This document shows positions 46,555 to 55,286 of a DNA stretch of 64,000 nt, one piece after another. Origin of the DNA: a virus (taxonomy: Duplodnaviria; Heunggongvirae; Uroviricota; Caudoviricetes); IMG/VR virus record IMGVR_UViG_3300032167_007519. One strand, written 5' to 3'. How positions within the stretch are numbered: position 1 is the stretch's first letter; every line of letters starts with the position of its first letter. Below the pieces are notes generated by a model. It did not search any database, was not told where the DNA came from, and was given only the letters and a program-made list of their open reading frames with translations. The translations under genes were made by a program, and so were the position numbers.

Positions 46555-49461
46555 TTAATTATAATTAGTCTTCATGCGAATTGCTTTATTCACATTGGAT
46601 AAAGTAATCAGATAGCTTGGACCATCTGTAGAATGTCCATCATATGGAACTCGTAATACTAAATCCTTAATGGTAACATAATTATTCTTTACAGAATAGG
46701 TTACATCTTCAATCATATTCGCTGAGAAATCTAACCATTCACTGCCTTGATAGCTGAAACGGAAGGTTTCGGCTACAACTGCCTTAGCATCAGATACACT
46801 ACTTACAATAATTTCTGTTAAAGAGCTCTTTACTCCTTGGAACATTACATCAGTAGATGCATTCTGGATAGTAAATGTGGTTGTCTTCTTTGCGGTATTT
46901 ACTGTAATTCCATCGTTCTTGGTGATGTAGGTAGCCTTTACAGTATATGTACCGTTACTTAATACGTTCATAGCTCCAGATTCATCCATTGTAGAAGCAA
47001 GTACCTGAATTCTACCATTGAAAATGGTTAAACTGGAACCACTTGCGGTAGCACTGGAAAGAACTTTTCCGTTTGGTCCGGTGATAGTTACATATACATC
47101 ACCTTCGGAACAGTTATTTACAGTGTACTTCTGGTTGGAATTGTTGGAAAGATATACATTAGAATCCTGTACACCAACCTTAACATTTCCACTTGTTCTA
47201 AATACGTCTACAAAGAAACTCTGTGGACCACTTGTGTAACTTAAGGTTAAATCATGAACCTTGGATTCTCCTAAAGACCAACCATCAACAACAATTAAAT
47301 TGTCTCTTACTATTGGATTCTTTACAGTTACATTTACTCTTGCTGTCTTACCGGAAATCAATTCGGTAATTAAGAACTGAACACTGCTTCTGTTTGTGTA
47401 AGAACGGATGGCAGCACCATTTACAACAAGAGTGTTTCCAATCATGTATGCTGGAGAACCAGAACCTCCACGTAAACCTTCTTGAACTTCCTGTGTAGTA
47501 CAACTGATTTCGTATTCACAATCTCCGGTCCAAAGCTTACCATACTGGTCTAATGGGAAAACTTTAACCGTATCAACACATACAATGCTTTCCATATTGT
47601 TGATAGCTGTACTGGAAACATAAAGATTGTTGGAAGAAGTAGTAAGCTGATTTACCTGAGATGGAGTTAATACTTTAATGGAAATGGTGCCAATATTCTT
47701 TTCAGCACCTTCAATATCTAAGTACTGTACTCTGGTTGGGATAGAGCCTGCTCTATCAAAAGCATAAACTTCTCCATAAGCACCAACATAATAATTGGAA
47801 TTTGTAGAAGCAACATAGTTAATCTGACCACCATAATATGCATATGGAGCCTTATAATCATTTAAACTATAAATTTCTCTTGCAGTATTGATACCACGGT
47901 CATCACTTGTGTATGTATAACCATAGTTATCTGTAATCAATACAACTAACTGATATGCTTTTTCTGTACCAGCAACAACTTCATGAACTGGTTTATCCCA
48001 GTTAATCGTTGCGGTAGAATCAGTCTTAACTAATGTCCATTCCTTAATGCCTGTTACTCGGTATGGTGCATGTTCAATAGAACGAATTACAGTGACTGGA
48101 CTTACTAATTCCTTTGTTTCTCCGGCAGTATTCCAATAGGTAAAGGTTGCTTTTACAGTCGCTACCTTATTGGCTTCGTAGAATAATAAGGAATTTTCAT
48201 TAAATACTACATCAGGAGAACTATCGCCAACTAGTTCATAGGAAATGTAGCCATACATACAATAGGTATTTGTTACATCAACACCATCTGCATATAAACG
48301 ATAGTCTAACTCAGTTTCAGAATCTTCTGTGTAATAACTATAGTTCATTGCATAAGCTTTACCCTGTTCTCCTAAAGAAGAATATACTACTTCTAAGCGG
48401 TCTGGTGTCGCAAAATCTGCTGTGATTTCTTCAAGATATTCATCTACAGTTACTTCATAAGTTCCACCAGTTACAAAAGTTTCAGTAGTAGTTAGGATAA
48501 CAGTCTGCGCATTTTTCTGTTCCATAGACTCTACAGTGTAAAAAACACCATCTTTGGATACTTTATATGCATTCTTATCATAATTTACAGCTTCCGGAAA
48601 CATAAGCTGTACCTTATTGTCGGCCACAAATACTAAATTCATTTCTGGCTTAGGGATTTCTGTTGGTTCTGGGTCTTCTACAGGTTCCTCTGGAAGGTTA
48701 GGATTTTCTACATCTTCTGGAGTTTCTGGGAGAACACTTACATAGCTGCCAACAGTAACTGTAGTTGGGAATACATTTAATTCCTTACCAGTTAATTTGT
48801 TTACAATGGAAAGATAAATGGTAGCAATACCTTCTTCTTTTGCAAAGAATAAACCATTATTTGCTACATAAAGAATATCTTCATTGTCTGTGAACCATGT
48901 ACACTTAAAGTTCTTTGCTTTGTAATTCTTAACGCCGTAGAAATTAAGGTCAACCATGTCTCCAACTTCTACTGTCATTTCTTCATACAAGTTATCTCTG
49001 GATGTACCAAGGTATACTGCAGTGGTATCTTCTTCTTCAAGTGTAGGTTCTTCTTTTGTCTCTACAATGACTGGTGCCTCATCTGTTACAGTTAAGGTAA
49101 CACCAGTAGAAGTATAAGCGCTGCCATTTCCGACATATACTTTAATGGTAGTCGTTCCAGTTTTCTTTGCTGTGATTACACCATCAGAATCTACTGTAGC
49201 AACTTTTTCATTACTACTAGTCCATAAAATAAGACTACTGTTCTTTGGCGTACCCTTTGTGTCCATGTCTTTGGTTTCACCTACGGTCATGGATAAATTA
49301 GTTACTTCTTTTCCATCAATTTCATAGGTGAATACGGTTCTGTTGTCTGCATAAACGGATGTCATTGGCATAGAAGTACATACCGTAACTGCAGCAACAA
49401 GTGCGGCAAATAATCTCGTAATCCGACTCATTGGATTATCCTCCTTTTTCTCGTTGTTCAT
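46555..49461 (-). CDS. Large secreted protein with Big_2 (bacterial Ig-like) domains. Start is possibly at the internal MSRITRLFAALVAAV signal peptide (~49431).
   Basis: VATVDSDGVITAKKTGTTTIKV is a Big_2 signature. Signal peptide present. 968 aa. Confidence 0.6.
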   Translation of the reverse strand: MNNEKKEDNPMSRITRLFAALVAAVTVCTSMPMTSVYADNRTVFTYEIDGKEVTNLSMTVGETKDMDTKGTPKNSSLILWTSSNEKVATVDSDGVITAKKTGTTTIKVYVGNGSAYTSTGVTLTVTDEAPVIVETKEEPTLEEEDTTAVYLGTSRDNLYEEMTVEVGDMVDLNFYGVKNYKAKNFKCTWFTDNEDILYVANNGLFFAKEEGIATIYLSIVNKLTGKELNVFPTTVTVGSYVSVLPETPEDVENPNLPEEPVEDPEPTEIPKPEMNLVFVADNKVQLMFPEAVNYDKNAYKVSKDGVFYTVESMEQKNAQTVILTTTETFVTGGTYEVTVDEYLEEITADFATPDRLEVVYSSLGEQGKAYAMNYSYYTEDSETELDYRLYADGVDVTNTYCMYGYISYELVGDSSPDVVFNENSLLFYEANKVATVKATFTYWNTAGETKELVSPVTVIRSIEHAPYRVTGIKEWTLVKTDSTATINWDKPVHEVVAGTEKAYQLVVLITDNYGYTYTSDDRGINTAREIYSLNDYKAPYAYYGGQINYVASTNSNYYVGAYGEVYAFDRAGSIPTRVQYLDIEGAEKNIGTISIKVLTPSQVNQLTTSSNNLYVSSTAINNMESIVCVDTVKVFPLDQYGKLWTGDCEYEISCTTQEVQEGLRGGSGSPAYMIGNTLVVNGAAIRSYTNRSSVQFLITELISGKTARVNVTVKNPIVRDNLIVVDGWSLGESKVHDLTLSYTSGPQSFFVDVFRTSGNVKVGVQDSNVYLSNNSNQKYTVNNCSEGDVYVTITGPNGKVLSSATASGSSLTIFNGRIQVLASTMDESGAMNVLSNGTYTVKATYITKNDGITVNTAKKTTTFTIQNASTDVMFQGVKSSLTEIIVSSVSDAKAVVAETFRFSYQGSEWLDFSANMIEDVTYSVKNNYVTIKDLVLRVPYDGHSTDGPSYLITLSNVNKAIRMKTNYN

Positions 49462-49540
49462 TTTTCAAGGTGCATTTTTTGTTTTTCTCATTCTTATTCG
49501 GAGTTTTTTAGGATGTGACATAATAAAAATGATAAAACAA

Positions 49541-49630
49541 CGACAATGGTAGGATTCGAACCTACGGACCTCTTTCGAGAGTCAACGGTTTTCAAGACCG
49601 CCGCAATAAACCAGACTCTGCCACATTGCC
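49541..49630 (-). tRNA. tRNA-Ser (anticodon TGA), class II with long variable arm
   Basis: Reverse complement folds as GGCAATG/CATTGTC acceptor, 3-bp D-stem, anticodon loop CTTGAAA, variable arm, T-arm GTAGG-TTCGAAT-CCTAC. Very similar to E. coli tRNA-Ser. Confidence 0.85.
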
Positions 49631-49727
49631 ACATATACTTTTCCTATAGCCTTTCTAAAAGGCTAAGAAATTTAACCCTTTAGAAAAAACTACAGGATGA
49701 GGAAGAATGATAAAGTTTTTATTCACA

Positions 49728-49751
49728 CTTATTAGCTACTAATTGGTTTAA
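49728..49751 (-). promoter_or_regulatory. Motif copy 14, upstream of tRNA-Ser
   Basis: cttattagctactaattggtttaat + ctttcgg. Confidence 0.55.
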
Positions 49752-49840
49752 TCTTTCGGTAATAAATGACATTTAGGCTTATTTTGCCAGATAATCAAAA
49801 CTTTTTTAGTTGCTTTAATAAACATTCTTTTTTTTAAGTT

Positions 49841-49885
49841 AAAAAAACTCAGAGACATAGGAATAAATATATTTTCATCTCTGAG
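49841..49885 (-). terminator. Hairpin with U7 tract (minus strand) between the tRNA-like elements and the tRNA-Ser promoter
   Basis: CTCAGAGA..TCTCTGAG 8-bp stem with a 22-nt loop, then UUUUUUU. Confidence 0.4.
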
Positions 49886-50002
49886 ACATGGAGGTTAGAA
49901 AACCTAAAAAATGTTTAGTTTTATAATAGAGCTTCTAATTCTTTTATTTCAGCTCTTAATTCTCTCACTTCTTTTAAAAGAAGTTTTTTTTGCTTTAAAG
50001 AT

Positions 50003-50116
50003 TACGGGAGAGAGGATTCGAACCTCTCATATAATGAATCCTGACCATATGATTATTTCTAATCACAGATTCCCATGGAGAATGAGTCCATGCACTTACC
50101 AACCGTGAACTCCCAT
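50003..50116 (-). ncRNA. tRNA-like RNA with CAT anticodon-like loop and a ~47-nt structured extra arm (GAAA-tetraloop hairpin)
   Basis: Acceptor ATGGGAG/CTCCCGT, D-arm CAC..GTG, anticodon stem ATGGA/TCCAT with loop CTCATTC, T-arm AGAGG-TTCGAAT-CCTCT. The extra arm is GAATC..TGATTA-GAAA-TAATCA..GATTC. Confidence 0.45.
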
Positions 50117-50189
50117 AACTAACTTTTTGGTCGAAAGAACAAGAAAATCAAAATAACTACCAACGCTTTTGGAAGGAAACGTTGAGAAC

Positions 50190-50245
50190 CCAAATGCTTC
50201 CTAAGGGAATCGAACCCTTTTTTATGCCAATTAGGAAGCAGATAG
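50190..50245 (-). ncRNA. tRNA minihelix-like element (acceptor stem plus T-arm only)
   Basis: GCTTCCT ... AAGGG-TTCGATT-CCCTT AGGAAGC: a 7-bp terminal stem directly flanking a T-arm. Confidence 0.35.
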
Positions 50246-50329
50246 ATAGGACCATTTTCGTAGCCCTATCTTTAGAAAGGAAGATAACATTTTGTAGAGA
50301 AAAGCAAATTTGAGAATAACCCTACAAAA

Positions 50330-50503
50330 GAGAGGTGGCGGATTTGAACCGCCAATTAGTTCCTATCAGATGTAACAAACTGTTTACCTAAGGAGAAAAA
50401 TTTATGTCTACCCTGCCCAAAGAGTATACATGATAAGTCAAATACACAACACACTGGAGAAAAATAGATAGGACTAATTACCGTTTTCGTTATAAAAACG
50501 AAA
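50330..50503 (-). ncRNA. Structured RNA candidate with a tRNA-like T-arm, a long internal helix and a terminal stem (Y-RNA-like?)
   Basis: 3' end GGCGG-TTCAAAT-CCGCC then ACCTCTC pairs with GAGAGGA at the 5' end. Internal 13-bp helix AATTAGTCCTATC/GATAGGAACTAATT. Hairpin CGTTTTTATAACGAAAACG. Confidence 0.3.
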
Positions 50504-50830
50504 TTCCTCTCAAATAGTAAAGATGAGGAATGAGAAGTTTAAAAATGGATGAAGAGACTCCTCACTCCTTACCTTTTACTTACTTCGATTGGCATATCGG
50601 ACCAGTTTCGAAGAGTGCTTGCATTGCCGAAGCCCACAAGCGATGAAACTCTTACGTTGACGATATTTTAATAAGAGAATCATCTCATCCAATCTAATAG
50701 ACAAATTGCTGTTTGTTTCCCTATTGCGGATTGGTGTGTGAGATGGAGGCCGCTTTGTACAGGAAACATTAGGGGGCTCTGTTATGGACTTATTGCATAT
50801 TGATTTATGACTAATTGCCATATCCCTAGT

Positions 50831-50956
50831 AGAGAAGGTCGGGCTCGAACCGACGACAACCAGCTTGGACTTAATTTTTTCCTTGCTGTTAGTTTCACAC
50901 GTACATATGAAACATTTTTATAAGGGCTGATGCTCTCCCATCTGAGCTACTTCTCT
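50831..50956 (-). ncRNA. tRNA-like gene with a ~53-nt insertion in the anticodon loop (intron-like, contains hairpin GTTTCA..TGAAAC)
   Basis: Acceptor AGAGAAG/CTTCTCT, canonical D-arm TAGCTCAGATGGGAGAGC, T-arm GTCGG-TTCGAGC-CCGAC. Anticodon stem TCAGC/GCTGG encloses 60 nt in place of 7. Confidence 0.5.
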
Positions 50957-51021
50957 ATTTTTTATTAGAACATAGTGAGGAAGAAGGCCTACCTATTGGT
51001 TAGATAGGCCTTTTGTTCCTA

Positions 51022-52497
51022 TTATGCTACTACCTTTTCGTAACGCTCACTGTTGACTACTGCCATCATGAGCTCGTAAGGTGTGGTTCCAATGTTCTCC
51101 ATTACCTGCTTAAAGATGTTTGGACTATATCCACTTACCATAGATACGCCTCTTGCACTCTTAGCAGCATGGAAGGTTGGATTCTTTGCGTTGACATTCC
51201 AGAATACTACCTGTGGAAGATGATATCCTGCTTCGTTATAACGCTTTTTCATAACATCGTAAAATGTCATGTTCTGCTCACGGTCAACACCCTCTACACA
51301 GTTAATCTGCATATCAGATACAATGACAATAGCATCTGGCATTTCTTCTGGAGTTACCTTACCCTTAATACAGGTCTTAAGTAATAACTCAAAAGCCGCT
51401 TCAAGGTCGGTAGAACCATCCCAATCAGCTTCCTTTACGATATTAAGATTATCCTTTAATGTAGCACCGTTAAGCTCTACATATTCCGGATGAGTGCTGA
51501 AAGTCATGAATACATCCTTTAAGTCACCCTTGTTTCTCTGAGCAAAATAAATTGCTAGAGCTGTAGCGACTTCAATTGGATACATACCTCCAGACTTATC
51601 CCAGCTCATAGAACCGGAAGTGTCACACATGACTAAAGCATTTCCCTTACATACATCCGGAAGAGACTTCCACATGGTTTCAAGGTCTCTGGTATAGTTG
51701 GTATTTACCTGATGAATAATGTCACATGGAGTAACAGTACCCATGTTCATCTTCTCTTCACCAGTTTCTACCTTCTGATTGAATTCTGTCCAACGAGCTT
51801 CATCATGCTTTACAAAAGCCTTACGGTTCTTAAGTAAAAACTTAGATGCACACTTGCTGTACTCAATCTCGTCCCACTTACCAGCACACATCTTTGCTTC
51901 CGGTAAATCTAAATACTTACGAAGAGAACGGAGCTTCTTTTTATAGTCAGACATGGTCTTGAAGGAATAACCTAACTTCTTGGCAGTTAACTTACCAAGC
52001 TTCTTTGTTTCTTCAGAACCAGAGTCCGGTGTAGCAATCCACTTAGCCAATAAAGAAATACTATTTCCCTTTGCTAAGTTCTCTAAGTCTAACTCAAACT
52101 GAGCCTTCATAAACTGCCACATTGCAGATTCTGCAGGAGTTCCAATCAAACAATATAAGTCCTTGGCACGACCAAATTCTAATACTGCCCAAAGGTTCTT
52201 CTCTACAGATGCTGGATTGATTTCAGCTAAATGACGGAACATATCCATAAAGGTATCTCTTTCTCCATATCCGCCACGAATGTCTCGGGTATAGAATAAT
52301 AACTTTACGGCAATATCCTTGTTTTCCTGAAAAGCTCTGCTAAATAACAGGTTCTTTTCTTCTGTAGTAGCCTGTCTCATTGCTCCGGCTCTACCAAATA
52401 AGTCTAGACAGGTGGAATCTGTGGTCTTTAAGGTATCACAACCATTCCATGTTTCTGTCCACTTTGCTTCGTTGTGAATAGCTTCACGTAAACTCAT
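51022..52497 (-). CDS. DUF2828-family protein: N-terminal TROVE/Ro60-like region plus C-terminal vWA domain
   Basis: vWA MIDAS VMCDTSGSMSW...DGSTD. Domain order and size (491 aa) match the phage DUF2828 family. The TROVE relationship is from memory, not a search. Confidence 0.55.
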   Translation of the reverse strand: MSLREAIHNEAKWTETWNGCDTLKTTDSTCLDLFGRAGAMRQATTEEKNLLFSRAFQENKDIAVKLLFYTRDIRGGYGERDTFMDMFRHLAEINPASVEKNLWAVLEFGRAKDLYCLIGTPAESAMWQFMKAQFELDLENLAKGNSISLLAKWIATPDSGSEETKKLGKLTAKKLGYSFKTMSDYKKKLRSLRKYLDLPEAKMCAGKWDEIEYSKCASKFLLKNRKAFVKHDEARWTEFNQKVETGEEKMNMGTVTPCDIIHQVNTNYTRDLETMWKSLPDVCKGNALVMCDTSGSMSWDKSGGMYPIEVATALAIYFAQRNKGDLKDVFMTFSTHPEYVELNGATLKDNLNIVKEADWDGSTDLEAAFELLLKTCIKGKVTPEEMPDAIVIVSDMQINCVEGVDREQNMTFYDVMKKRYNEAGYHLPQVVFWNVNAKNPTFHAAKSARGVSMVSGYSPNIFKQVMENIGTTPYELMMAVVNSERYEKVVA

Positions 52498-52597
52498 AAT
52501 AAAATCCTCCTTACATGATTCGTAAAATAATTTTGTAAAATTTGCGATTTACAGTTCTGTTTTAAGATTTGCTGTAAGAATCACAAGATGGATTAGT

Positions 52598-52620
52598 CCC
52601 TACATAAGTAGGGGTTTTTT
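52598..52620 (+). terminator. Plus-strand terminator-like hairpin upstream of the TROVE-like gene
   Basis: CCCTAC-ATAA-GTAGGG GTTTTTT. Confidence 0.4.
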
Positions 52621-53014
52621 ATTAACTTATTGCTTGTTCTGTTATAGAACAAATGCTGAATTATAGTGATGAGCTATCGGCATTGAAACTAACTTTAAAT
52701 TTGTAGTATTCTAGTCATCGTCATGACCTGCCGTCTATGTCAAATTACTTTCTAAAGCTTATGCACACTTAGCTAAAGATTTTATTTTATAGAAATTCAG
52801 CAAAATATTTGTTTGTTCTGTTCAGAGGAGCCTCTTCCTTCCTTACTCCCTAGCTGCACCTCTCCGGGATAGGATACCTTTTCGCAGACTCCTCTGCCAG
52901 TGCAACATGCTTGATGTGCAGTCAAAGACTATTGTTGCAATATGTACTGGTTTCTAACCAATAGCCCACCACTCTGTTCCTAAATAATTTGTTTACAGAG
53001 AACCATAAAAATTA

Positions 53015-53242
53015 TTATAAAACTTCAAAAATATCAAAAAGTATTTCTGAAGATATAATACTGTTTGGCGCAATTTCTTTTCTAGTTCCTAAATTACGTA
53101 GTTTGTTTAGATATCCTGAACATTGCTGGCAACAAAAGAAAGTATTCTTACCTTTTCTTTTTTTTCTATTATATTCGGATATTGATTTCTCAAACTTTTT
53201 GTTACATTCTGGATTAAAACAAGTTAATGTTATTGTATTCAT
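53015..53242 (-). CDS. Small zinc-ribbon protein (75 aa)
   Basis: CFNPEC...CCQQCSGY. The only credible ORF in this part of the ncRNA-rich region. Confidence 0.4.
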   Translation of the reverse strand: MNTITLTCFNPECNKKFEKSISEYNRKKRKGKNTFFCCQQCSGYLNKLRNLGTRKEIAPNSIISSEILFDIFEVL

Positions 53243-53677
53243 AAATACCTTAATTCAAAATAATATAGGATGAGATAATGAGTGGACCTGAGGAGAGTCG
53301 AACTCCTGTCTGGAACACCGCCATAAAACTTTCTACACGTTTATCTTATTTTTGGTACCAGCCGATGTTTAAATAAGCAAACCCATCGACATCGCACAGC
53401 CAGATTTTATTTTGATATGGCTTTCTGGGTGAACTTTTACCGTATCTCAACCGCTATTTTTGAACCCTCCGGAGTATAGCGGTGTTATCCGGAGAGCTTA
53501 TCCCTTACCATTTCAGATAAGGGTGTAGTCTACTTACCTATTAGGCAGCCTGAGCTACTGGTCTGTATGCGTTAGCATTTATTCTTTGGTGTCGGATTTA
53601 AGAGGTGTCCACCATCCTCTACGTGCTTATTTTCCTTTGTATGCCCCATCGAAACCGGGACAGGCCCAAATGTTTTT

Positions 53678-54145
53678 TTATTTGCGTTTTACGCGCGATT
53701 TTTTTAAATATTGACCCGTAAGTTTTCCATTCTTTACGAGTACTTTATGTATGTCACTTTCTACAATTTTACGCTCTTCGTCTAACAAATGAAAAGAATA
53801 TATGCCACACCTGTTTTTTAAATATTGATAAACTTCTTCTTGGGACCAGCAAAGTTTACGTAAAAAATCAATATTTTCGGGTGCTCGTTGTTGAGCTTCT
53901 CTTGATGCGAGGCCTATATTATTATTATATCTTGGTTTAAGCTTTAACCTAATTGCTATATCAAGGTCATGTATTTTTTCATTATCTGTGTTTATATATG
54001 AACCAAAAGCAACCATTTCGTCTACAAAACACGTAAACTCCGGATGTGATATTTCTTCATTAAGCTGCGAGATTCTTTCCAATAGTTCATTCAATTTTTT
54101 TTCTACTGTTTTTCTTTTGTATAACTTAGATTTACTCTCTGCCAT
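53678..54145 (-). CDS. Minimal nucleotidyltransferase (Pol-beta superfamily)
   Basis: AFGSYINTDNEKIHDLDIAI fits the GS-x(9-13)-DhD nucleotidyltransferase motif. Confidence 0.55.
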   Translation of the reverse strand: MAESKSKLYKRKTVEKKLNELLERISQLNEEISHPEFTCFVDEMVAFGSYINTDNEKIHDLDIAIRLKLKPRYNNNIGLASREAQQRAPENIDFLRKLCWSQEEVYQYLKNRCGIYSFHLLDEERKIVESDIHKVLVKNGKLTGQYLKKSRVKRK

Positions 54146-55214
54146 TGTAATTTCCTTTTTTTATGTTTTGTAAAACGTGAATTTAGATTAAAGTAGGGCT
54201 ATTTATTGTCATCTAGGTTGCCACCCTAAAATGTTTCTTACTCTCGGTCTTTCGTTCATATCTTTGATGCCCATCGGTTTCCTCTCAGATACACACATTT
54301 CAAACCTCATTGTGGATTCCTTATTTTCCGTAAGTTTTTTAGCGATACCGAACTTACAACACAAATACCAGTCACTAACGCTCTTTTAATTACCCTTTTG
54401 GGATAATTACCGTCTTTTCTTCGACGGACCTCGAATGGTTTATGCAAGAACCAATAAGCCTCTGTGTTTTGACATATCACAGAAGAAATATTCTCCTTTC
54501 GGATAGGTGGCTATAGGGGAATCGAACCCCATCATTGATATATTTAGCTCTCCACTTTTACACTACCGTCGTGTGGTCAGACTCGAACTGATTCCGGTGG
54601 TAAATATATCCCCGCTGGCAACCATCACTTCATAAGCAATTTTTAGGAATTACTATCAGTACAAGACTGTCAAACATCTGTCGCTGAACGAGCTCTTTTT
54701 TCAGAAATCTAAGCAGGTGGAATTTCCCCACAATGCATACTTAAATGATGTTCTTTACGTGGCCAGTTAGCCATATTTTGTTTTTTTACATAAAAATAAA
54801 ATCCTTAACTTACATGAAACGCTTTTTTTTTGAAGATTTTTCATAAAATTTTTCTTTTTCAAGTAGCAGAATTGCTGTATGTTTTACATTAAGAATTTTT
54901 TGACAATAGCTCAAATTTGGCTTTGTACATGTACGCTGCCAATAAAAAACTCTATCGGTTTTTGTTCGGTTGTTATCTTTATACAGGAAACTTTTTTTCT
55001 TCAACCCATTTGAATATGTAGTAGATTTGCTGTATGTTTCCCTAAAGATTGTTAGTTTACTTTTTACATGATGCTTTTTTGTTTGATTGCAAGAAGCAGG
55101 ACGCCTCTAATTGAATAATATGTTTTAGAATAGTTAATTCAAATTTTGCATTTTAGTTTTGCTGTAAGCATCACAAGTAACTATGTTAAATTATATTGGC
55201 TTTGACAGCCAAAG

Positions 55215-55286
55215 AGCACGTAACGAGAATCGAACTCGCATCTTCTGCTTGGAAGGCAGACATCTTAACCATTGGACCATACATGC
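55215..55286 (-). tRNA. tRNA-Gly (anticodon TCC)
   Basis: Acceptor GCATGTA/TACGTGC, anticodon stem TCTGC/GCAGA with loop CTTCCAA, T-arm GCGAG-TTCGATT-CTCGT. Confidence 0.85.

Follow-up and report, generated by a model that had tools for sequence, protein, structure and literature searches.

The tRNA-like RNA and its surroundings

The DNA analysed here, called the window, is the whole 64,000-nt stretch of the IMG/VR virus record IMGVR_UViG_3300032167_007519, which belongs to the Caudoviricetes. All window genes lie on the minus strand, the GC content is ~33%, and HNH-endonuclease, Ig-like structural-protein and other phage families are found among the proteins (PHROGs). Megablast of positions 48000-54000 against the INPHARED phages returned no match. 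The subject of the analysis is a tRNA-shaped RNA element located in a gene-free stretch of 1.4 kb between the gene of a Ro60-like protein and a tRNA-Ser gene; a second RNA, without tRNA shape, follows the element directly (Table 1).

The initial annotation had placed a tRNA-like gene with canonical acceptor, D and T arms at 50831-50956. This assignment was confirmed on the minus strand, and inclusion of the discriminator extends the element to 50830. Written from 50956 to 50830, the RNA is AGAGAAG-UA-GCUC-AGAUGGGA-GAGC-A-UCAGC-[61 nt]-GCUGG-UUGUC-GUCGG-UUCGAGC-CCGAC-CUUCUCU-A. The features of a tRNA cloverleaf are present, namely acceptor, D and T arms together with the nucleotides of tertiary pairing as read from the sequence (U8, A14, G15:C48, G18G19 and the UUCGA T-loop). 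The Rfam tRNA model RF00005 has a gathering score of 29 and matches at 47 bits, with E 6.5e-7 over the entire window; its alignment puts 60 nt of the element into a loop segment of six positions. The distance between the two strands of the anticodon stem, previously given as 60 nt, was counted as 61 nt, i.e. 54 more than a 7-nt loop, and the minimum free energy fold of this insert has z = -3.47. Its hairpin, described before as the 6-bp GTTTCA..TGAAAC, comprises 9 bp including two U.G wobbles, and is followed by ACAGCAA. The hairpin and ACAGCAA are together referred to as the module.

The element of the window is present in identical form in three further independent metagenome contigs. The same architecture also recurs at many related loci, far above chance, and no intact tRNA was found at the position in the related phage loci compared. 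Our scaffold scan of all fetched loci counted 204 distinct tRNA-like elements with a length of 100 nt or more, 164 of which contain CRGCMA in the insert. The consensus of 159 parsed elements consists of a variable, compensating lower stem, an upper stem UCAU(G)...(U)GUGA that often has tandem U.G/G.U pairs, a variable apical loop of 3-50 nt, a spacer of 2-4 nt and ACAGCAA, the last being near-invariant across insert-bearing elements. Module-bearing elements often occur in arrays of 2-5, and the copies are nearly always on the strand of a gene encoding DUF2828 and vWA domains, within ~2 kb of it. Outside the scaffold the insert is the most conserved part; it is kept at every related locus, and its module retains compensatory changes across loci whose proteins are only 42-82% identical.

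These observations bear on the suggestion that the element is a disrupted pseudo-tRNA, decaying and without function. The lack of a standard anticodon loop is what would be expected in that case, and default ARAGORN, which calls seven tRNAs and one transfer-messenger RNA (tmRNA) in the window, does not report the element. The identical contigs, the compensatory changes in the module, the multiple paralogs per genome, the retention of the insert at all related loci and the lack of an intact tRNA in its place argue against it, and we regard decay as effectively refuted.

Covariation was examined at two levels. A covariance model of the module, R1, was built from 20 diverse 35-nt seeds. R1 matches the 64-kb window at exactly two places, which are on the minus strand and no more than 1.8 kb downstream of the Ro-like gene: one within the tRNA-like element (50917..50879, 28.1 bits, E 1.2e-4) and the other within the second RNA (50771..50702, 27.7 bits). 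In the R1-fitted alignment of 58 distinct matches, the seven hairpin pairs are 97% paired and show 87 double-sided changes, whereas shuffles give 23 +/- 3.5 and slid controls no more than 19. An N-padded alignment of the whole element in 18 diverse class-I homologs gave double-sided changes in 29 of 31 pairs in five helices; for this alignment and for the early hairpin analysis the sequences were chosen by requiring paired stems, so that the percentage of pairing is partly built in and the diversity of pair types is the informative quantity.

The register that Rfam assigns to the anticodon stem is wrong for one sub-family, which comprises L007:5198-5335, gut types B and C and the AGTGAGG type. 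A reading of its anticodon stems as degenerate was considered and rejected: a short anticodon stem directly flanks the module, and a variable arm UCC-A-N4-AA-GGA is conserved. When the two "exons" were compared with 337 distinct canonical tRNAs from the fetched loci for an ancestral isoacceptor, no close relative emerged. The NNC-AA at the 3' end of many inserts is read as a putative remnant that marks where the module was grafted into an ancestral anticodon loop. We also note that one tRNA-like element in an array (L331 4590-4733) carries another insert of 73 nt, U-rich and without hairpin-ACAGCAA; therefore the anticodon position of such scaffolds can host other cargo.

The module of the second RNA is GUUUCC-46 nt-GGGAAAC-AA-ACAGCAA, with the hairpin starting at 50767 and ACAGCAA at 50712-50706. 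This RNA is homologous to intergenic RNAs of L007, L330, L331, L343 and L350, with which it shares the 5' block GGCAGTTAGTCATCAACAATGATGCAGTTAGACC, in fuller form GGCA(A/G)UUAGUCAU...AUGCA(A/G)U(A/U)AG(A/U)CC, the module, and UUCG-capped hairpins further 3'. An open reading frame (ORF) of 81 aa at 50821..50576 overlaps it; no Pfam or PHROG family was found for its product, and it is probably spurious and not a gene.

Further RNA features of the window are collected in Table 1. The tmRNA, the nucleotidyltransferase ORF and the seven tRNA genes make the region an RNA-gene island. The hairpin between the Ro-like gene and the tRNA-like RNA may be a terminator, an attenuator or a processing site; because its U-tail is weak, it was not called by a simple terminator scan. 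A GC-rich, gene-free and seemingly structured patch in the gap between the tmRNA and the Ro-like gene, amid the AT-rich genome, gave no Rfam family at gathering score and may be a further non-coding RNA. The copy of ACAGCAA in the leader of the Ro-like gene weakly suggests a candidate autoregulatory site, which is speculative; leader copies also occur in L336 (about 2296-2392) and L338 (about 2338-2344), and like that of the window they lie downstream of sigma-70-like promoter hexamers. In the whole window ACAGCAA is observed 24 times against 8.75 expected, an excess that was not used as evidence because it lies mostly on the coding strand.

Table 1. Positions of the tRNA-like RNA, its parts and other features in the window
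Feature	Position	Strand	Remarks
Ro-like gene, 491 aa	52497..51022	minus	stops 66 nt upstream of the tRNA-like RNA, same strand
tRNA-like RNA, 127 nt	50956..50830 including discriminator A	minus	acceptor, D, anticodon-stem and T arms; 61-nt segment instead of 7-nt anticodon loop
Acceptor AGAGAAG x CTTCTCT	50956-50950 x 50837-50831	minus	7 bp, open
D arm GCTC-AGATGGGA-GAGC	50947-50932	minus	
Anticodon stem TCAGC x GCTGG	50930-50926 x 50864-50860	minus	
Variable loop TTGTC, then T arm GTCGG-TTCGAGC-CCGAC	50854-50838 (T arm)	minus	
Insert, 61 nt	50865..50925	minus	between TCAGC and GCTGG; inner CCUU/AAGG pairing predicted
Module	50883..50913	minus	hairpin GUUUCAUAU-GUAC-GUGUGAAAC (50913-50892), spacer UA, ACAGCAA (50889-50883)
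Second RNA, non-tRNA, ~240 nt	50826..~50580 (3' boundary approximate)	minus	directly after the tRNA-like RNA
Hairpin GGCCUAUCUAACCAAUAGGUAGGCC	50986..51010	minus	between Ro-like gene and tRNA-like RNA; from sequence
ACAGCAA in leader of Ro-like gene	52569..52575	minus	~70 nt before ATG
Structured patch	52830-53000	minus	between tmRNA and Ro-like gene
tmRNA, phage-encoded	53282-53667	minus	132.8 bits; tag peptide ANAYRPVAQAA; 0.8 kb upstream of Ro-like gene
Pol-beta-type nucleotidyltransferase ORF, 155 aa	54145..53678		precedes tmRNA
tRNA-Gly(TCC)	55214-55286		ARAGORN
tRNA-like piece	about 50511..50330	minus	acceptor-like GAGAGG/CCUCUC and perfect T arm GGCGG-UUCAAAU-CCGCC, then U-tract; ~120 nt in place of anticodon arm; UCAUGU present, no R1 match
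Minihelix, 45 nt	50239..50195	minus	acceptor and T arm, GCUUCC...AAGGG-UUCGAUU-CCCUU-AGGAAGC-A, without D and anticodon arms; RF00005 25 bits, below gathering score
tRNA-like RNA	50116..50003	minus	7-bp acceptor AUGGGAG/CUCCCGU, T arm, anticodon arm CAUGGA-CUCAUUC-UCCAUG (CAU anticodon); ~48-nt variable region; no ARAGORN call; weak tRNA-Sec model match, 22 bits
tRNA-like element	60941..60817	minus	RF00005 30.9 bits in permissive local scan; 10-bp 'anticodon' stem AUCUUAAUUC/GAAUUAAGAU around ~50-nt loop; no R1 match, yet contains AUCAGCAAU

The Ro60-like protein and its linkage to the module

The 491-aa protein encoded upstream of the element belongs to phrog_850, "RNA-binding protein" (E 5e-122, PHROGs), and matches DUF2828, DUF7788 and VWA_2 in Pfam. 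In the collection searched by tblastn, homologs are present in 693 phage records, and the mycobacteriophage annotation reads "Ro-like RNA binding protein". The AlphaFold2 model, for which 30 homologs served as input, has a predicted local distance difference test score (pLDDT) of 92.2. When the model was compared with the PDB by Foldseek, the twelve best matches were all Ro60/TROVE structures, with E values from 5.5e-9 to 2.8e-6 over ~500-570 columns, about the full chain. Xenopus Ro60 ranks first (1yvr, E 5.5e-9, template-modelling score 0.63, ~540 columns), 2i91 and 1yvp are also found, and so are Rsr of D. radiodurans (2nvo) and Ro60 of Thermus phage phiLo (9kop/9l5y), while isolated vWA domains rank after the Ro60 structures. 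The model and the Foldseek alignments thus reveal the HEAT-repeat ring and C-terminal vWA domain of the Ro60/TROVE fold. Pfam TROVE does not match the protein, and phmmer against the PDB sequences returned no Ro60 and only a spurious match. Since the fold matches Ro60 but sequence searches do not, the protein is termed, on the basis of its modelled structure, a distant structural homolog of Ro60, with 12-16% identity.

The nearest phage records, the human-faecal scaffolds L001 and L002, encode proteins ~45% identical to that of the window and have long "tRNA" matches (121-127 nt) a short way upstream of the Ro-like gene. Alignment shows that the order of hairpin and then ACAGCAA in the insert is common to these elements and that of the window. 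The IMG/VR contig L007 (268 kb) encodes a protein with 78% identity; in the gap, two insert-bearing elements follow the gene, together with a third copy of hairpin and ACAGC(C)A that has no tRNA scaffold. Five further homolog flanks (59-82% identity, contigs up to 672 kb) have gene-free gaps of 0.4-1.5 kb after the gene with one to four insert-bearing tRNA-like elements, usually accompanied by a free-standing module RNA. Only free-standing ACAGCAA copies are present in L336, and no tRNA-like element in L338.

When R1 was applied to 33 sources (the window and 32 Ro-like loci), nearly all strong matches fell on the strand of the gene and near it; no credible match was obtained in the Ro-like loci of Bacillus, Enterococcus, Listeria and Mycobacterium phages among them. 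A search of both strands of 80 metagenomic Ro-like loci (378 kb) gave 110 matches at E <= 1e-3; every one is on the strand of the gene, they are distributed over 60 loci, and many of the 20 negative loci end within 300 nt upstream of the gene. By comparison, 886 kb of unrelated IMG/VR contigs gave one match below E 0.01, and no Ro-like gene lies near the best matches of this control. The control contigs are deliberately rich in look-alikes, having been picked by the loose pattern GTTTC..GAAACNNACAGCMA; the specificity of this pattern in IMG/VR is low, with ~100 or more chance matches by our own estimate, and it was not used as evidence.

The association is also recovered when the search starts from the RNA. 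A pattern for the gut-type module was run on IMG/VR, and among the matches listed (at least 120) 98 have tRNA-like context, and 89 of these are followed on the same strand, at a distance of 230-720 nt, by a Ro-like gene. The 22 listed matches without such context, several of them visibly inside ORFs and only one near a Ro-like gene, are apparently due to chance. A combined pattern of a D-arm word and the module found 16 loci in 185,579 species-representative genomes, all from Lachnospiraceae or other Clostridia and including the isolates Roseburia hominis An869 and Diplocloster hominis CSJ-3. At 15 of these loci a Ro-like gene whose product is 58-96% identical to the L001/L002 proteins follows on the same strand, ~0.1-1.7 kb downstream; the 16th locus runs off the end of the fetched stretch. 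The pattern of the window's own lineage found nothing in the species-representative cellular genomes.

A tRNA-like decoy or processing element that acts independently of the Ro-like protein has to be weighed at this point. Such an RNA would soak up host anticodon nucleases or tRNA-modifying enzymes, or would serve as "punctuation" for RNase P/Z, and the module would bind a host factor. Phage tRNA clusters counter tRNA-targeting defences, the tRNA-like scaffold is dispensable for the module in its free-standing copies, and aberrant, module-less tRNA-like pieces crowd the 1.4-kb stretch, with another at 60941..60817 (Table 1). However, in the RNA-first searches the module is linked to a same-strand Ro-like gene no more than 2 kb away, and it is absent from the control phage DNA. 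This explanation, which we consider unlikely, is partly compatible with a role beside the Ro-like protein, as the tRNA-like end could recruit such factors while the module binds that protein.

Other genes and RNAs were noted at Ro-like loci. CCA-adding/poly(A) polymerase-family genes (PolyA_pol and tRNA_NucTran2_2) lie ~2 kb downstream of the Ro-like gene and RNA array in L331 (6147-7488) and L337 (6478-6488 onward), and an MCM/AAA ATPase gene comes directly after the RNA array in L330, L333, L334 and L337. In Listeria phage LMSP-25 (L005, NC_024360), a near-threshold match to ROOL (949-1500, 88.5 bits against a gathering score of 99.1) is situated ~1 kb upstream of the DUF2828/Ro-like gene.

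A possible intron or a probable Y RNA-like partner

The initial annotation had also offered a novel small tRNA intron. The element would then be a real tRNA gene with an intron of ~54-56 nt, in which the module is the site of a splicing or processing enzyme, the Ro-like protein is possibly a chaperone and a ligase rejoins the halves into a decoding tRNA. The scaffold is indeed fully tRNA-like, with an open 7-bp acceptor and a discriminator base; array scaffolds resemble different isoacceptor classes, including ones with class II-like variable arms, and inserts often end in NNC-AA, reminiscent of the 3' side of an anticodon loop. Two gut-phage subtypes yield textbook loops if ~50-56 nt are removed, UUCCCAA (Gly CCC) with a U73 discriminator in type A and UUGGGGC (Pro GGG, G37) in type D, and Listeria phages carry a gene for RtcB, a "tRNA splicing ligase", ~1.3 kb from the Ro-like gene, in L005 on its downstream side.

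In the window element, however, every k + (7-k) join leaves C or G at position 33, the options being CC-UCCAA or C-GUCCAA, and the closest relatives likewise lack U33. The ARAGORN check that had been proposed gave a divided answer: the default run calls nothing at the element, and with introns allowed (-i) the program fits a tRNA-Trp(CCA) with a 56-nt intron, in a model in which nucleotide 26 is left out and the anticodon stem is displaced by one position. The anticodons and junctions predicted by -i for homologs are incoherent (Trp, Glu, His, Gly, Phe, Cys, Ile, Lys, Asn and others). The hBHBh' motif of bulge-helix-bulge (BHB) introns, with 3-nt bulges flanking a 4-bp helix, was not found by our scan at the anticodon region of the window element, and in the family its rate of 33/159 against 41/300 shuffled-insert controls shows no enrichment. 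Between 50700 and 51100, tRNA was the sole Rfam match at E <= 10; intron and ribozyme families gave none. RtcB was not found by tblastn in the window, which is 64 kb of a larger genome, and a non-exhaustive Pfam scan of 26 window ORFs detected no ligase or endonuclease domain. A normal tRNA-Gly(UCC) is already present in the window, the Gly tRNA cited at 55215 being real. The most telling point is that the module also occurs in RNAs without tRNA scaffold. An intron is therefore very unlikely as the explanation of the element, and a small probability is kept for splicing in at least some members because the two gut subtypes would give textbook loops and many inserts end in NNC-AA.

Two related candidates were rejected. 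The reading of the first loop nucleotides, CCTTATA, as an ochre-suppressor-like loop fails on the C at position 33; window ORFs of up to 968 aa read through with translation table 11, and they show no sign of stop-codon recoding that would point to this or another suppressor tRNA. For a self-cleaving ribozyme within the insert, of the hammerhead, twister, pistol, hatchet or HDV-like type, there is no Rfam match at E <= 10, and core motifs were not recognised.

Among the options initially listed, the evidence favours a tRNA-derived regulatory RNA, here with the gene of a Ro60 homolog immediately upstream. The element is likely to be a tRNA-shaped, Y-RNA-like partner of the phage Ro60 homolog, with the module as predicted protein-binding site and the tRNA-like body as effector or processing handle. 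Like a Y RNA, it is encoded beside a Ro60 homolog, 66 nt downstream on the same strand, a linkage repeated in the RNA-first searches. We infer binding of the module by the protein, processing of the RNA and an effector function as follows. Transcription of the locus would accompany that of the Ro-like gene or follow directly on it, and host RNase P and 3'-end enzymes would act on the tRNA-like ends to free a stable RNA of ~127 nt. Its acceptor, D and T arms would fold to the L-shape of tRNA, and the module in place of the anticodon loop, i.e. the UCAU(G)/(U)GUGA hairpin and a single-stranded ACAGCAA, would dock on the Ro-like ring. The tRNA-like domain could then be the effector end that links the Ro-like protein with a factor of host or phage that recognises tRNA, or that gates the ring, in parallel to the action of Y RNAs with Ro60/Rsr and PNPase. 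The second RNA would be a YrlB-like companion.

Several points weigh against this interpretation. The module differs from the Ro-binding motifs GGUCCGA, GNCGAA and CGAA, and the YrlA model does not match. The Ro-like loci of Bacillus, Enterococcus and Listeria phages have no module by R1, and among the 20 of 80 metagenomic loci without R1 at E <= 1e-3, L344, L345, L347 and L349 are not obviously incomplete upstream. Many of the associated loci are close relatives, so that the counts overstate the number of independent events, and Ro-like genes sit in tRNA clusters, where some proximity to tRNA-like RNAs is expected anyway. The textbook loops of the two gut-phage subtypes belong here as well.

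A more elaborate version, possible though doubtful, is a new class of modular phage ribonucleoproteins in which the module attaches a set of non-permuted mimics to the Ro-like ring. The mimics would imitate different isoacceptors, class II included, and their acceptor ends would stay free and processable, so that CCA could be added and aminoacylation might possibly follow; in this way the ring would be delivered to tRNA-handling machines. Candidate targets would then be aminoacyl-tRNA synthetases, EF-Tu and the ribosome, anticodon nucleases and repair enzymes, and the gut Lachnospiraceae phages would sense, protect or remodel the tRNA pool during infection.

If the element is indeed a Y RNA-like partner, the Ro60/Y RNA system extends to a large and abundant group of Lachnospiraceae phages and prophages of the human and animal gut, with the two named isolates as cultured carriers by the pattern scan. 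A concrete RNA-protein pair is proposed for the uncharacterised DUF2828 (PHROG 850). The architecture, with an unpermuted mimic, a new motif and multi-copy arrays, is missed or misclassified by the Rfam YrlA model and by tRNA finders, and annotators are cautioned that "tRNA with intron" calls beside such genes are probably Y-like RNAs. Ro60 orthologs of gut commensals are discussed as triggers of anti-Ro autoimmunity; for this reason abundant Ro60-like ribonucleoproteins of gut phages may interest that field.

Comparison with known RNAs

Extra sequence exactly at the anticodon loop of a canonical tRNA is what the element shares with intron-containing tRNA genes, both the bacterial ones with group I introns and the archaeal and eukaryal BHB type. 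In contrast to these, the window insert has no group I core, no BHB and no coherent junction or U33. It was correctly judged far too short for a group I intron, since its 54-61 nt compare with a core of ~200 nt or more, and no group I family of Rfam matches. Moreover, the insert is itself the conserved functional part and is also found outside tRNA scaffolds.

Y RNAs are encoded beside known Ro60 orthologs, and each species has at least one that mimics tRNA, its Ro-binding module projecting from the anticodon stem (PMC4201824; bioRxiv 10.1101/312249). In YrlA (RF02553), T, D and acceptor helices and tRNA tertiary pairs are combined with a closed acceptor hairpin, so that the molecule looks like a circularly permuted tRNA (bioRxiv 10.1101/312249; PMC4201824). 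The window element resembles YrlA in its Ro60-homolog neighbour, the tRNA-like D and T arms, the acceptor helix, the tertiary-pair nucleotides, the lack of an anticodon loop and a presumed protein-binding module that projects from the anticodon stem. The second RNA with the same motif extends the likeness to the yrlA and yrlB pair, a tRNA-like and a non-tRNA RNA that share one motif beside the Ro gene (PMC4201824).

The differences from YrlA concern topology, motif and partner. YrlA is permuted (5'-Ro motif-V-T-acceptor hairpin-D-3'), with its 5' and 3' ends in the Ro-binding stem, whereas the window element has the native order, an open 7-bp acceptor with discriminator, and the module as a closed insertion. 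The motif is hairpin and ACAGCAA instead of the GNCGAAN0-1G of YrlA, which is absent from the window insert, and the partner is a DUF2828 instead of a TROVE protein. Unlike YrlA, elements of the window type often form arrays of 2-5 with different scaffolds. The YrlA model RF02553 gave no match at E <= 10 in 50700-51100; as a positive control it found the RNA beside the DUF2828 gene of mycobacteriophage Enceladus, at 39.8 bits (below the gathering score of 69).

The RYPER (Ro60-Y RNA-PNPase) systems of Deinococcus radiodurans and Thermus phage phiLo are also comparable. Yrn1 of D. radiodurans has partial tRNA-like features in the native D-anticodon-T order (PMC4201824), and in phiLo a phage Ro60 binds two adjacent small RNAs encoded beside its gene, Yrl1 and Yrl2; this Ro60 can recruit host PNPase (PMC12135203). 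In Yrn1 and in the phiLo RNAs, the terminal 5'/3' stem contains the Ro-binding site with its CGAA-type motif, and any resemblance to tRNA is at best partial. In the window element, by contrast, the terminal stem is a genuine acceptor stem, and the conserved motif is found where the anticodon would be.

A search of the accessible literature, incomplete in coverage, turned up no account of such an architecture, and no family of Rfam 15 corresponds to it. The element thus looks like a previously undescribed, non-permuted variant of the bacterial Y RNAs. In Enceladus the RNA right after the DUF2828 gene is of the permuted YrlA type, with T, acceptor and D arms aligned, and the DUF2828 family therefore pairs with tRNA mimics in two topologies.

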